Source: a phage. From it: DNA of 64,000 nucleotides. The first letter of the stretch is position 1. Every line of letters starts with the position of its first letter. Location of the stretch: the sequence record PZ019086.1; one strand, 5' to 3'. Below are positions 44,935 to 52,602 of the stretch, in pieces. Made by a program: the position numbers and the translations under genes. Under the pieces are notes generated by a model that saw nothing but the letters and a program-made list of their open reading frames with translations, was not told the DNA's origin and did no database searches.

Positions 44935-45665
44935 CAATTTTTCCTCTTTAAAATTCTGCCGTGTTTCCAACCTGGCGGTATAATATCATCTTTACCTATA
45001 AGCGTGCATTCACTTCCATTATTAATCCATTTCTTACCGCGGATTCCTTTATAATCTCTTGGTTTTATTTTGTCAAACTTTGCATCAAGTTGATATGACC
45101 ATCTAAATCCATAAGCATATTGAAATTTACCCTCGGCACAATATTTGATATTTGACCCGTTTCCATTAACTGACCGGGACGCTGCTGCAATAGAGTGAAA
45201 AGTTTCTATGAAATCCCCATCTAATGAGAATTTATGTATTTCTACAGATGGGCACGCATATCTATTCACGTTAGATACATGTTGTTTAGTTTCGTTTTTA
45301 TGATGCTTACCTAGCATTCCTTTAGGATGAGGATTATTTTTCCAATATTTCTTAAAGAACTCAGAATTAGCTTTAGCAAATAATTTTCTGTGTAAGCTGT
45401 ACAATCTATTATTAATTCTATTGCCAGCTTTATCTGTTGCCATTAGCGTTAATGCAGAGGCAAGTCCAAAATGGCCTTCATTTATCTTACACAGTAATAG
45501 ATGTGCTATAAAATGTTCTCTAGCTGTTAATTCAACTAAATTTTCTTTATCATCAGAACCTCCCATGCATCTAGGGATTATATGATGTGTCTCTTTATAT
45601 TCTGATAAAGATTCCCGAGCCTGAGCTCGGGAAATTAGGTCGTTATAGATTTTTTGATAATTCAT
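44934..45665 (-). CDS. mobE: HNH homing endonuclease, MobE-like, 243 aa, between nrdA and nrdB
   Basis: HNH motif HHIIPRCMGGSDDKENLVELTAREH; same intergenic position as T4 mobE. Confidence 0.8.
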   Translation of the reverse strand: MNYQKIYNDLISRAQARESLSEYKETHHIIPRCMGGSDDKENLVELTAREHFIAHLLLCKINEGHFGLASALTLMATDKAGNRINNRLYSLHRKLFAKANSEFFKKYWKNNPHPKGMLGKHHKNETKQHVSNVNRYACPSVEIHKFSLDGDFIETFHSIAAASRSVNGNGSNIKYCAEGKFQYAYGFRWSYQLDAKFDKIKPRDYKGIRGKKWINNGSECTLIGKDDIIPPGWKHGRILKRKN

Positions 45666-47929
45666 TATAATTTACACGCTGCGCAATCATCGGCTTTTGG
45701 AGCTTCTATTTCATAATCATCAGTACCAGAACCATCGCGGGTATTATGATAATAGAAATTTTTAATGCCATAATACCATCCGTATAGCATGTCATCAATC
45801 ATTATTGACATTGGAACCTTTCCTTTTGGAAAAATCTGTGGGTCATAATATGTATTCGCTGAAGCTGATTGACATACCCATTTCAGCATAATAGCTACTT
45901 GCGTAAGATAAGGTTTATTACCTTTCTTAGCTAATTTCCATGTATAATCATAGAGGTCTATGTTATGTTCAATATTGGGCACGACTTGATTAAAGGAACC
46001 CTCTTTTGATTCTTTAACAGAGACTGGTCCACGTGGAGGCTCGATACCGTTTGTACTGTTAGAAACTTGGGAAGATGACTCACATGGCATAAGTGCTGAT
46101 AATGTGCTATTACGGATGCCAAAGAGCTTAAGGTCTTCCCGCAGCGACGACCAGTCACAAACGTATTTTGGAGCTGCGATTTGGTCAATCTTTTTATTGT
46201 ACCAGTCGATAGGTAATTCGCCTCGAGACCAACGAGTGTCTGAATAATATTCGCAAGGTCCTTTTTCTTTGGCGAGCTTAATTGATGCTTTAATGAGTCC
46301 ATACTGCAATCTCTCAAATAGTTCATGTGTTAAATCGTTAGCATCTTCGTAAGAAGCAAAATTACTTGCTAGCCAAGCTGCATAGTTAGTAACACCTACG
46401 CCAAGGTTTCGACGTTTTTTAGCTTTTTCTGCTTCAGGAACTGGATATCCTTGGTAATCCAAAAGATTATCAAGAGCACGAACTTGGACTTCTGCCAATT
46501 CATTAATTTTATCTTGGTCTTGCCAATCAAAGTTATCTAACACAAATGCAGATAACGTACACAATCCAATTTCAGCATCAGGACTATTCACATCATTTGT
46601 TGGAATAGCAATTTCACAACACAAGTTACTCTGACGAATAGGTGCCTTTTCACGAATAAATGGCGTATAGTTATTCGTATTATCAATGAACTGTACATAA
46701 ATCCTTGCTGTTCCTGAGCGTTCAGTCATGAGCAATTCAAACAGTTCACGGGCTTTAATGCGCTTTTTACGAATATTAGGGTCTTTTTCTGCGGCTTCGT
46801 ATAATTCACGGAAACGGTCTTGGTCTTTAAAATAAGAATAATAAAGTTCGCCACCCATTTCATGTGGACTGAACAAAGTGATGTAATCATTCTTTCCGAA
46901 TCGTTCCATCATTAGGTCATTCAGTTGAACGCCATAATCCATATGACGGATACGGTTTTCTTCTACACCTTTGTTATTTTTCAAAACGAGAAGATTTTCA
47001 ACTTCCAAATGCCAAATAGGATAATAAGCAGTAGCAGCGCCGCCACGAATTCCACCCTGTGAACATGATTTAACAGCAGTTTGAAAATGTTTCCAAAAAG
47101 GAATAACACCAGTATGACGTACTTCACCTGTGCCAATCTTAGAACCTTCGGCACGAATCATACCAACGTTAATACCAATTCCAGCACGTTTGGAGATATA
47201 TTCAACAATTGAAGCGGAAGCCTTATTGATAGACTTTAATGAATCACCCGCCTCAATAACAACGCATGAACTAAACTGTCGAGTTGGAGTACGGCAACCA
47301 GCCATAATAGGAGTTGGCAATGAAATCTGTCGAGTAGATACTGCTTCATAAAAACGAATAACGTGTTTTAATCTATCAACAGGTTCATCTTGATGTAATG
47401 CCATTCCAATAGTCATAAATGCAAACTGCGGAGTTTCATAAATTTGACCAGTGGTTTTATCTTTAACTAGATATTTTTCTTTTAATTGCATCGCCCCGGA
47501 ATAAGTAAATTCCATATCCCGCTCATGCTTAATTTTTGATTCTAAAAATGTAATTTCTTCAGCAGAATATTTTGACAACAATTCAGGGTCATATTTACCT
47601 TCATTTACACAGTAAGAAATATGGTCAATAAATGAACGTGGTTCATATTGCCCGTAAACATGCTTACGAAGAGCAAACATTAAACACCGTGCAGCTACAT
47701 ATTGATAATCAGGCTCTTCAACTGAAATAGAATTCGCAGCAGCCTTAATGACAATAGTCTGAATGTCATCAGTTGTCATTCCATCACGGAGATATGATTT
47801 AATATTTTCATATAATTCATAAGGATCTACAGATGTTCCTTCAGCTGCCCAGGATAAAACTTTAATAATTTTTTGCGGGTCAAAGCTCTGAGAAACACCA
47901 CTACTTTTGATAACATTAATTAATTGCAT
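45665..47929 (-). CDS. nrdA: Ribonucleotide reductase large subunit NrdA, 754 aa
   Basis: 754 aa with ATP-cone N-terminus and class I RNR active-site region; length as T4 NrdA. Confidence 0.97.
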   Translation of the reverse strand: MQLINVIKSSGVSQSFDPQKIIKVLSWAAEGTSVDPYELYENIKSYLRDGMTTDDIQTIVIKAAANSISVEEPDYQYVAARCLMFALRKHVYGQYEPRSFIDHISYCVNEGKYDPELLSKYSAEEITFLESKIKHERDMEFTYSGAMQLKEKYLVKDKTTGQIYETPQFAFMTIGMALHQDEPVDRLKHVIRFYEAVSTRQISLPTPIMAGCRTPTRQFSSCVVIEAGDSLKSINKASASIVEYISKRAGIGINVGMIRAEGSKIGTGEVRHTGVIPFWKHFQTAVKSCSQGGIRGGAATAYYPIWHLEVENLLVLKNNKGVEENRIRHMDYGVQLNDLMMERFGKNDYITLFSPHEMGGELYYSYFKDQDRFRELYEAAEKDPNIRKKRIKARELFELLMTERSGTARIYVQFIDNTNNYTPFIREKAPIRQSNLCCEIAIPTNDVNSPDAEIGLCTLSAFVLDNFDWQDQDKINELAEVQVRALDNLLDYQGYPVPEAEKAKKRRNLGVGVTNYAAWLASNFASYEDANDLTHELFERLQYGLIKASIKLAKEKGPCEYYSDTRWSRGELPIDWYNKKIDQIAAPKYVCDWSSLREDLKLFGIRNSTLSALMPCESSSQVSNSTNGIEPPRGPVSVKESKEGSFNQVVPNIEHNIDLYDYTWKLAKKGNKPYLTQVAIMLKWVCQSASANTYYDPQIFPKGKVPMSIMIDDMLYGWYYGIKNFYYHNTRDGSGTDDYEIEAPKADDCAACKL

Positions 47930-48246: not shown

Positions 48247-48475
48247 ATTGTTGTTCCGTTAAAACAGTAATATCATAATAACAATCAGAAGAAGTTTTAA
48301 CTGTGGAAATTTTATTATCAAAATACTCACGAGTCATTTTATGAGTATAATACTTTTTACCATAAATGATAATAGGTTGTTCTGGTCCTGGAACTTCTAA
48401 CTCGCTTGGATTAGGAAGTGTAAAAAGAACGACACCAGAAGTATCCTTAAATCGTAAAATCATATATCCTCTCAA
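48200..48475 (-). CDS. Hypothetical protein, 91 aa
   Basis: ORF between td and nrdA; overlaps the next ORF by 47 nt in another frame. Confidence 0.55.
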
Positions 48476-48486
48476 TTAAATTAAAA

Positions 48487-49347
48487 TTACACCGCCATCT
48501 TTCCTTTAATTGGCGGGTGAGATACATAGTTGTTAAGAACAAAATTATGCGGCTTTGCGAATTGACTCAACCAAAATACCTGCGATTCTGTGTCCCATTC
48601 ATCAAATTCATCTGGAAATTTTAATTGTAATTCGCATAAATCCATAGGTTCACGACGCAAAATTTCTTTACATTGTTCTACGTGATTCATATAGATATGA
48701 GTATTACCACCAGAAAATATCAAATCTCCAGGAATAAGATTACACATCTTAGCTACAATATGAACTAACGCAGCATATGATGCAATGTTGAATGGCAAGC
48801 CCAAGAACACGTCAACACTTCTTTGATACCACTGCAAATCCAAATAGCCATTACGCACATTAAACTGATAGAACATATGACAAGGCGGTAATGCCATATA
48901 TTTAAGTTCAGCTGGATTCCATGCAGAAACAATTTGTCGCCTATCATTTGGTAGTTTTTTAATACGATCAATAACTTCTACAATTTGGTCTACACCACCA
49001 AAATCACGCCACTGTTTTCCATAAATTGGACCAAGTTCACCACTATGATATCCTAAATCTTTTGCTTGATTTTCGTAATTTTCATCCCAGACTGTTTTGC
49101 CTTGAATTAATGAATCATGTTGAATTAATCGTAAATCATTTACATTTGTGCTTCCCGATAAAAACCATATTAGCTCAGCAATGCAAGCTTTCCAGGCGAG
49201 CTTCTTAGTCGTTACTGCAGGAAAACCTTTAGTTAAATCCCAGCGTAATTTAGTACCGAACAAAGCAATTGTTCCTATGCCTGTTCGGTCATCGGTTTCA
49301 TAGCCATTTTCAAAAATGTCTTTAATTAAATCTTGGTATTGTTTCAT
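48487..49347 (-). CDS. td: Thymidylate synthase, 286 aa, uninterrupted
   Basis: Full-length continuous TS with active-site region ALPPCHMFYQF; no intron or I-TevI ORF. Confidence 0.97.
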   Translation of the reverse strand: MKQYQDLIKDIFENGYETDDRTGIGTIALFGTKLRWDLTKGFPAVTTKKLAWKACIAELIWFLSGSTNVNDLRLIQHDSLIQGKTVWDENYENQAKDLGYHSGELGPIYGKQWRDFGGVDQIVEVIDRIKKLPNDRRQIVSAWNPAELKYMALPPCHMFYQFNVRNGYLDLQWYQRSVDVFLGLPFNIASYAALVHIVAKMCNLIPGDLIFSGGNTHIYMNHVEQCKEILRREPMDLCELQLKFPDEFDEWDTESQVFWLSQFAKPHNFVLNNYVSHPPIKGKMAV

Positions 49348-49392
49348 TTAGTACCTTATATAAATTATAATACATTTTATGAAGCTAAATAA

Positions 49393-49752
49393 TCAATACG
49401 GTTTAGCATCAAATTTTCTTTCAATTTCAGGCGTGAAATATAATTCTTTACCACGTTTGGAAAAGCGACCAATAATATGATAATTATTCTCATCAAACGT
49501 GATATTGCCAATATCCATAGCTTTCAACCAAATATCAATATTTCTGTCAAGCTTTATATCAAAATTCCAATACGGAGAACTATTACCGAAAATACTGCAA
49601 GCGGATTCAGTGAAACAACTGCTATAAATCTTGTCTTTAGGAACTACTAATTGATAGACGCCTTTAATAAACTGAGGACCCTGCCATTTTGGCTGTTTCG
49701 CGTCTTTTTCTAATAGAATAGGATAATAATTAAAGTTCATATTTTCCGCCAT
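49393..49752 (-). CDS. Hypothetical protein, 119 aa, between frd and td
   Basis: ORF with no recognised domain; not expected at this junction in T4 as I recall. Confidence 0.6.
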   Translation of the reverse strand: MAENMNFNYYPILLEKDAKQPKWQGPQFIKGVYQLVVPKDKIYSSCFTESACSIFGNSSPYWNFDIKLDRNIDIWLKAMDIGNITFDENNYHIIGRFSKRGKELYFTPEIERKFDAKPY

Positions 49753-49760
49753 GCGTTATT

Positions 49761-50587
<827 letters not shown>

Positions 50588-50597
50588 ATTATTTTCC

Positions 50598-50840
50598 TTA
50601 AACAGACTTTTTCACAATTTTCCAATCAGCTTTAAACTGTTCAACATCAGAATGGTAAATCCAAAACCCTGCGCTTTCTCCATCCTCATAAAGAGGACAT
50701 CTATCGCATTCATCTTCCCATCCCATATCACGCAAAAGACGTTCAGCTTTTTCAACAAGTTCAGAATCTTTACCGATGATATTAAAATACCATTTACCTC
50801 TAACTTCTGAATCTTTAATGCTCTGGCGTTGTAATCTCAT
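50598..50840 (-). CDS. Hypothetical protein, 80 aa
   Basis: ORF with GGAGAA RBS and upstream early promoter. Confidence 0.6.
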   Translation of the reverse strand: MRLQRQSIKDSEVRGKWYFNIIGKDSELVEKAERLLRDMGWEDECDRCPLYEDGESAGFWIYHSDVEQFKADWKIVKKSV

Positions 50841-51693: not shown

Positions 51694-52602
51694 TTAAAGG
51701 TCATTCAAAAGGTCATCCAGGTCCGTGTCATCAGCACTAGATGAACTGCCAGAGCTTGAGCTCATAAAATCATCTTCAGTTTTTGTTTTGAAGTCATCAA
51801 CATTAAATGCATCCAAATCATCAGCAACTTTATCAGCTTTCTTAGCGGCAGTTGCTGCGGCACCACCCATAGCAGCAGTTCCCATAACTTGACTGAACTT
51901 AGTGCTCAGTTCTTCAAACGATTTGAATTTATCTTTAGAAGTCATTTCAGAAAGGTCAACCATTTGTTCGAACAATTCTTTCTGGAAAGATTCATCATCA
52001 ATGTTTGGAATCGCAGATTGATTCAGGAATTTAGATTCGTCGTAGTTACTAAAACCAGAAACTTGTTTAACTTTCAGTACAAAGTTAGCACCTTCCCACG
52101 GACAAGTTACATCAACCGGAGTTTCACCCATTTCAACATCAACTGCAATCATTGCATTGATTTTATCCCAGATTTTCTTACCGAAACGATATTTAAATAC
52201 TTTACCTTCATTTTCTGGAGCAGCTGGGTCTTTTACAACAAGAATGTTAGCCCAGTAAGAAGTTTTACGTTTAACAAGACCGTACTCTTTATTGTCAGTG
52301 TTGTACAAATCATTTTTACTGATGTACTGACATACTGGACAAGAATCGTAATCACCGTAGGTAGATGAGCATGTTTCGATATACCATTTACCATTTTTCT
52401 TGAAACCGTGATTTACAAGAAGTGCAAATGGTGCTTGTTCATCATTTTTAGACGGAAGAAAACGAATTACTGCTTGACCGTTACCCGCATTGTCGAGTTT
52501 CAGTTTCCACTCGCCTTTATCTTCAGAAGAAAAACCACCTTTATTTCCAGCCAGTTTAGCCATTTGTGCAGCGAGTTCAGCAGTAGATTTACGTTTAAAC
52601 AT
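51694..52602 (-). CDS. 32: Single-stranded DNA-binding protein gp32, 302 aa
   Basis: Zinc-binding Cys/His region, acidic C-terminal tail; length as T4 gp32. Confidence 0.97.

Follow-up and report, generated by a model that had tools for sequence, protein, structure and literature searches.

What lies between the dihydrofolate reductase (frd) and thymidylate synthase (td) genes in T-even phages other than T4? The original prediction, made on a 64-kb stretch of phage DNA (the window), stated that the two genes overlap directly in T4 and noted that here they are parted by a 119-aa open reading frame on the same strand, with a separate 45-bp gap ahead of td. It described the frame as an extra ORF and a candidate accessory insertion, and proposed protein and profile searches, structure prediction, alignment of the frd-td junction across T-even phages and a codon-usage comparison with the flanking genes. 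The underlying observations are correct. The ORF listing places the frame, in its longest form of 119 codons from an ATG, at 49393..49752 on the minus strand, and the interval ahead of td (49348..49392) is 45 nt long. In the T4 record (NC_000866), frd spans 145109..145690 and td ends at 145112, giving a 4-nt ATGA overlap with no gene between.

td.1 and its surroundings

The window is part of a T-even (Tequatrovirus) genome in which frd, the ORF and td follow one another on the minus strand. The upstream neighbour, frd (193 aa), lies at 49761..50342, with 8 nt separating its stop codon from the 119-codon ORF; the downstream neighbour, an intronless td (286 aa), lies at 48487..49347. The same strand carries nrdA (45665-47929), separated from td in the gene list by nrdA.1 and nrdA.2, and gene 32 (51694-52602), separated from frd by frd.1-frd.3-type small ORFs. 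Many Tequatrovirus genomes match the 2-kb frd-td segment at 95-97% identity, and Frd of the window shares 95% amino acid identity with that of T4.

The td gene is uninterrupted in the window, whereas td of T4 and T6 carries a group I intron with I-TevI; an Rfam scan returned no RNA family and no group I intron match anywhere in the 64 kb. An acidic 81-aa ORF (50342-50587, minus strand; PHROG 3183) has a stop codon that overlaps the frd start. At this site T4 has just a 71-nt non-coding gap from frd to frd.1, so the 81-aa ORF is a second T4-absent small gene beside frd. Td itself contains a hypervariable C-terminal patch (residues about 235-268; 48544-48645, minus strand) that exists as distinct alleles, of which one is common to the window and AugustSocin, a second belongs to T2H and a third to RB69 and SF. 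Td is nearly invariant outside this patch, and the window and T2H proteins are only 90.5% identical overall.

The ORF between frd and td is td.1, an already named but uncharacterised T-even gene, and is thus not new. GenBank entries AY262132.2 (T2H) and AY262134.2 (T6), both partial, annotate it as 'td.1, hypothetical protein'. These copies (protein ABI48932.1) share 99-100% amino acid identity with the window gene, and have the same frd-td position and the same 45-nt spacer. The window gene differs from that of T2H by synonymous substitutions only (12 synonymous, 0 nonsynonymous). The sequence matches the PHROG 1928 profile (phrog_1928, E 9.5e-36, residues 8-115), and tblastn against 50,697 phage records detected td.1 in 590 of them, 363 at an amino acid identity of at least 90%. 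Carriers include T2, T6, RB3, RB18, RB27 and PP01.

The usual database name for td.1 is 'hypothetical protein', although several arbitrary-looking labels are also in use: 'glucose-1-phosphate adenylyltransferase', 'reductase' and, in the BASEL phages AugustSocin, AlbertHofmann, WilhelmHis and FelixPlatter, 'putative homing endonuclease'. A literature search using td.1, the accessions, the PHROG identifier and frd-td phrases returned no paper discussing the gene. Wilson and Edgell 2009 (PMC2790892) give the T2H and T6 accessions as sequence sources and do not mention td.1.

The translated form of td.1 is likely to be shorter than the longest ORF. The ATG at 49752 reads GTG in T2H, where it lies 12 nt upstream of the td.1 start, and it is this difference that extends the ORF to 119 codons in the window. 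The ATG at 49740 is conserved in T2H, SF, AlbertHofmann, AugustSocin and the metagenomic contig L019. In the Mosigvirus SF, td.1 begins MNFNYY with an ATG that overlaps the frd stop codon (ATGA), and has no upstream extension. Database entries for td.1 are mostly 115 aa in length, and homologues align from residue 5-9 onward. Because the ATG at 49752 is not conserved and database entries are mostly 115 aa, the real coding sequence is likely to be 49393..49740 (minus strand), starting at the conserved ATG and specifying a protein of 115 aa (MNFNYY...AKPY), 13.6 kDa and pI 8.5. The four additional N-terminal codons (MAEN; 49741..49752, minus strand) are probably an untranslated leader containing a weak GGA Shine-Dalgarno sequence for the ATG at 49740.

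Judged by its substitutions, td.1 is under strong purifying selection. The window and AugustSocin copies differ at 12 nucleotides, all of them synonymous, and comparison with two Mosigvirus copies gave dN/dS values of 0.04-0.05 (0.07-0.09 in the td comparison). The proposed codon-usage comparison revealed no foreign signature: the GC content (32.5%), GC3 (28%) and CAI (0.669) of td.1 equal the frd and td values, while its other two frames have CAI values of 0.47-0.52 and are full of stops. A foreign origin of td.1 was rejected on the match of GC, GC3 and CAI to the flanking genes. At approximately 36% GC, about 7% of random codons are stops, such that 119 open codons would be expected with an estimated p of ~2e-4 per start. 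Composition and substitution pattern together thus carry no foreign compositional sign and lend no support to a chance ORF.

The genes frd, td.1 and td appear to be co-transcribed, since they share a strand and no terminator-like site interrupts them. A consensus scan of 48400-50700 found no such site, a negative that speaks only against an evident interruption of the transcript. In KP17, SF, L019 and VAC36, stop/start overlaps suggest that translation of the td.1 family is coupled with that of Frd and Td. The td.1-td spacer (49348..49392, minus strand) contains the td Shine-Dalgarno sequence AAGG at 49354-49357, together with promoter-like hexamers (TTGATT-N18-TATTAT) and, 10 nt ahead of TATAAT, a MotA-box-like TTTAGCTTCA. 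Mosigvirus alleles lack 30 nt of this spacer. The spacer elements could constitute a td promoter that T4 lacks; the consensus scan found 12 promoter-like sites in the region against 10.2 expected, which is not above chance.

Alleles of the frd-td slot

Comparison of genomes reveals the frd-td junction to be a polymorphic cassette slot. Sixty of the 515 phage records matching the T4 junction were sampled in even steps down the ranking, with the td.1 allele recognised by two query halves lying 617 nt apart. Within Tequatrovirus, td.1 was present in about 39 of the 60 records (~65%) and a 68-aa ORF in 14 (~25%; for example IME537, with BYEP01 likewise), while the junction was empty, as in T4, in six (~10%). 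The tblastn counts roughly agree (363 records for td.1 and 135 for the 68-aa ORF, each at an identity of at least 90%). The frd-td junction of RB69 is also empty. Pattern scans of IMG/VR, where T-even contigs are few, yielded no empty and four occupied junctions, numbers from which allele frequencies are not derivable.

These data bear directly on how the ORF had been described. It is no unusual 'extra': most sequenced Tequatrovirus genomes carry td.1, among them T2, T6, RB3, RB18 and RB27. The absence of a T4 counterpart is confirmed, and with it the view of the ORF as a variably present accessory gene within the frd-td-nrd nucleotide-metabolism cluster; it is not a gene common to T4 and all its relatives, T4 being without it.

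The 68-aa ORF is basic, belongs to PHROG 9550 and is carried by JS98 and by roughly one in four Tequatrovirus records. It was located at L017:3100-3306 (Escherichia phage IME537), L018:1300-1506, L019:3670-3879 and L020:2148-2354. Versions with 79-81% identity are found in VAC36 and contig L019, placed after two td.1-family ORFs, and homologues at 43% identity exist in Phapecoctavirus. In one record it goes by the name 'flagellar biosynthesis protein'. The idea that it is a relative of td.1 was rejected, the two being unrelated on comparison.

Homologues of the td.1 family are also found in the frd-td slot of Jiaodavirus, Mosugukvirus, Karamvirus, Gelderlandvirus, Winklervirus, Marfavirus and Bragavirus. 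Divergent copies, at 28-48% identity, separate frd from td in phages KP17 (a Jiaodavirus of Klebsiella), PM2 (Pectobacterium), ZX14 (Enterobacter), Kc304 (Kosakonia), CF1 (Citrobacter) and NP4 (Salmonella), the KP17 gene overlapping both frd and td. Homologues are likewise found between frd and td in CC31, Melville, X20, SJ_PmiM, VAC36 and contig L019.

Several of these slots hold more than one gene. PM2, CC31, Melville and X20 have two ORFs, a short copy and a longer paralog with an insertion of 20-30 residues; the Proteus Bragavirus slot has two long copies; and Klebsiella Marfavirus VAC36 and metagenomic contig L019 have three ORFs, one short, one long and one of 68/69 aa. The paralogy of short and long copies is supported by hhalign probabilities of 98.2% and 98.9%, and PHROG 1928 matches the long copies too. 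These long paralogs (PM2 gp192, CC31p238, Melville_235, X20 gp177 and Proteus SJ_71/SJ_72) share with td.1 the PHROG, the slot and the C-terminal motif (I/V)GRFxKxGxxxxF, but differ from it in the 20-30-aa insertion, which follows the Q..W motif, and are only about 20-25% identical to it. No td.1 paralog was found in the 64-kb window. Because td.1, the 68-aa ORF and the paralog co-occur in the VAC36/L019 array, a Marfavirus-like array of three ORFs could have given rise to all three Tequatrovirus alleles by nested losses.

Alignment of the frd-td junction across T-even phages, as had been proposed, resolved the difference between the window and T4 into a 417-bp indel between two copies of the 9-bp direct repeat TAAATGAAA. 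The left copy (49759..49767, minus strand) extends across the final sense codon of frd and its TGA stop, and the right copy (49342..49350, minus strand) lies across the td ATG-AAA. The copies are 417 bp apart, the exact length missing in T4, and both are also present in T2H. The empty sites of T4 and RB69 have a single copy, reading TATAAATGAAACAATA, and the T4 junction is exactly as a deletion between the two repeats would leave it. The repeat could, however, be coincidental, being built from codons that both genes need anyway. The corresponding repeat in SF is AAATGAA, the IME537 junctions read AAATGAG and CTAATGAAAC, and contig L019 has an ATGA overlap at three of its four junctions and ATGC at the fourth.

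The T4 junction could reflect either a deletion or an ancestral empty site that recombination later filled, and does not of itself prove the direction of the event. Loss in the T4 lineage, rather than insertion in the window phage, is the simpler reading, because homologues hold the same slot in many genera. The ATGA overlap of frd and td in T4 would then be the derived, empty allele. Accordingly, one half of the term 'accessory insertion' is upheld: the gene is accessory, whereas insertion is the less simple reading relative to T4, given the homologues across genera, and has support, in a limited sense, in the SF background. More generally, slot junctions take the form of ATGA-type stop/start overlaps or near-overlaps, which may provide microhomology for precise loss or replacement. 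Such microhomology would let a whole ORF be lost or swapped while its neighbours remain undamaged.

SF is an RB69-like Mosigvirus in which frd and td are 92-100% identical to those of RB69. Relative to the window, SF td.1 is 89% identical, as against 61% for frd and 75% for td, and dS is 0.67 for td.1 and about 2 for td. The borders of the SF cassette are sharp, falling at the frd stop codon on one side and inside the initial 40 nt of td on the other. Since SF td.1 is far closer to the window than are the SF flanks, and its borders are sharp, td.1 appears to have passed between Tequatrovirus and Mosigvirus since these genera diverged. In principle, the low synonymous divergence of td.1 between the genera could result from RNA constraint instead of lateral transfer. 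For contig L019, amino acid identity to the window is 48% for frd, 63% for td.1 and 79% for td; here td.1 divergence lies between the frd and td values, as expected for vertical descent.

A plausible vehicle for the exchange between Tequatrovirus and Mosigvirus is ordinary recombination in mixed infections. The site of the td intron is about 600 bp from td.1, and co-conversion during I-TevI homing of that intron may therefore aid td.1 exchange.

In AlbertHofmann, a Mosigvirus, frd (L007:906-1523) is 85% identical to that of the window, compared with 61% for SF frd, and reads 36 nt further into the spacer. This mosaic frd indicates recombination between the genera around the frd-td slot.

The Td.1 protein

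The protein and profile searches returned a known family, PHROG 1928, and no domain of known function. Td.1 had no match in Pfam or NCBIfam, PADLOC defence-system models produced 0 families at E values up to 10, and PDB sequence searches with the single sequence and with a profile yielded nothing credible. A word-indexed protein search returned three matches when queried with the single sequence and 11 when queried with the profile of the family; no match bore a domain annotation. Exhaustive HMMER searching of 1.84 billion representative proteins recovered 17 clusters of 99-116 aa, with one spurious exception, from phages of Enterobacterales only. The exception, a match of 838 aa, was discarded, its sequence having the appearance of a tetratricopeptide (TPR)-type repeat protein. 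A comparison of Td.1 with gp32 found no relation between the two.

Alignments of the family reveal five invariant residues (W, G, G, K and G), together with a near-invariant Gln and Phe. The family motifs, Q..W near the N-terminus and GRFxKxG near the C-terminus, are both present in Td.1 of the window. On reading of the same alignments, no column of invariant His, Asp, Glu or Cys was found. The basic pI of Td.1 is typical of its family, in which values are mostly 8.5-9.4 with a median near 8.9; the products of neighbouring genes are acidic, with the exception of the basic NrdA.1 (pI 9.2).

Structure prediction, also proposed at the outset, produced a confident AlphaFold model (pLDDT 89, pTM 0.82) with the element order b-b-b-helix-b-b. 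No significant structural relative of this model was found. OB folds dominate its weak structural matches, with a similarity to the OB superfamily that is not significant by structure or profile. We infer from the model that Td.1 is a single-domain, beta-barrel-like protein with an OB-like element order. Given that the modelled protein is small, basic and OB-like, and that the invariant residues of the family are Trp, Lys and three Gly, Td.1 is probably a binding protein rather than an enzyme, with a nucleic acid, nucleotide or protein as its partner.

Possible functions and related systems

Taken together, we are largely confident that td.1 is a genuine accessory gene residing in a cassette slot, that the T4 allele is derived, that the gene has been exchanged between genera and that its product is likely a non-enzymatic binder. 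T4 and RB69 do without the gene, so it is not required in the laboratory, and its slot beside frd and td may merely reflect the generally conserved gene order of T-even phages.

Absence from T4 and RB69, and the non-conserved first ATG (49752), could be taken to mean that the ORF has no function, being either a remnant or a spacer sequence left open by chance. This is effectively refuted by the substitution pattern (dN/dS 0-0.05); the 363 intact near-identical copies, the intact divergent orthologues down to 28% identity, the confident AlphaFold model and a codon usage that is genome-typical in the td.1 frame only likewise oppose an idea that we regard as barely credible. The homing-endonuclease label of several BASEL phage records would instead make td.1 a free-standing homing endonuclease, or the remnant of one, inserted between frd and td. 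Its presence/absence polymorphism between two conserved genes resembles that of the seg and mob genes, the cassette borders in the RB69-like background of SF are sharp, and the nrd-td region has been described as a hotspot for endonuclease insertion (PMC2790892). Every testable defining feature failed, however, and we rate this explanation as very improbable. No LAGLIDADG, PD-(D/E)xK, HNH or GIY-YIG motif or domain was recognised in Td.1, the Pfam, NCBIfam and PADLOC searches were equally without a match, and the PDB sequence and fold searches returned no nuclease. On reading of the alignments, the invariant residues of the family are W, G, G, K and G, with no His, Asp, Glu or Cys among them, and a 115-aa protein offers too little room for a nuclease domain in addition to one for DNA binding. 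Moreover, divergent members in the same slot across genera, with tandem paralogs, are atypical of homing endonuclease genes.

A thymidylate or folate accessory subunit or regulator could take the form of a Td/Frd partner in the T-even dNTP-synthesising complex or of an RNA-binding regulator of the frd-td message. The frd-td position is conserved across at least eight genera, the stop/start overlaps described above imply coupling to Frd and Td, and a basic protein with a predicted OB-like order would be compatible with RNA, DNA or nucleotide binding. Nevertheless, the nucleotide metabolism of T4 and RB69 is fully functional without td.1, an unrelated 68-aa ORF fills the slot in a quarter of Tequatrovirus records, and linkage is weak evidence where gene order is conserved throughout, such that we consider a metabolic role unlikely. 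Alternatively, Td.1 might serve in host interaction, counter-defence or inter-phage competition, as a small binding protein that inactivates a protein of the host or captures a signalling nucleotide, and whose retention or loss depends on the hosts encountered. The gene is polymorphic within two genera and laterally exchanged, yet under strong purifying selection, a combination typical of accessory early genes in T-even phages. The family is also confined to phages of Enterobacterales and diverges fast between genera (31-48% identity, against about 80% for Td). Conversely, searches conducted without a dedicated anti-defence library found no similarity to a known anti-defence protein, the literature search revealed no link, and a fixed position inside a metabolic cluster is atypical of known anti-defence islands. 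We therefore treat a host-directed role as a possible but doubtful assignment.

Beyond the reading of td.1 as an accessory gene encoding a probable binder, we offer one more speculative proposal, to which we attach little confidence. PHROG 1928 may represent an unrecognised small fold that has long co-evolved with phage Frd and Td, acting as a nucleic-acid- or nucleotide-binding modulator, and that T4 deleted. If so, the family would tune thymidylate supply or block a host response to phage nucleotide metabolism, and the deletion in T4 would explain why td.1 has never been studied.

As a sequence feature, td.1 is an ordinary, named hypothetical gene common to most T2/T6-like phages, and its value is contextual. 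Of the three alleles of the cassette slot, the textbook frd/td overlap of T4 is the least common, which makes T4 the odd one out. The analysis also flags a strongly constrained, confidently folded, phage-only family beside two well-studied enzymes, and corrects the misleading labels 'putative homing endonuclease' and 'glucose-1-phosphate adenylyltransferase'.

Like the seg and mob homing endonuclease genes, of which mobE in the nrdA/nrdB interval is an example, td.1 is a small variable gene with sharp borders set between conserved genes of the nrd-td region. Unlike them, it lacks any nuclease motif, domain or fold, GIY-YIG and HNH included, and its family forms tandem divergent paralogs in the slot across genera. 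The predicted Td.1 structure, meanwhile, has the same element order (b1-b2-b3-helix-b4-b5) as the OB domains of RPA, SSB, Cdc13, Teb1, the RecO N-domain and RuvA domain I, and small size and basic charge are common to Td.1 and the OB-fold domains that bind nucleic acids.
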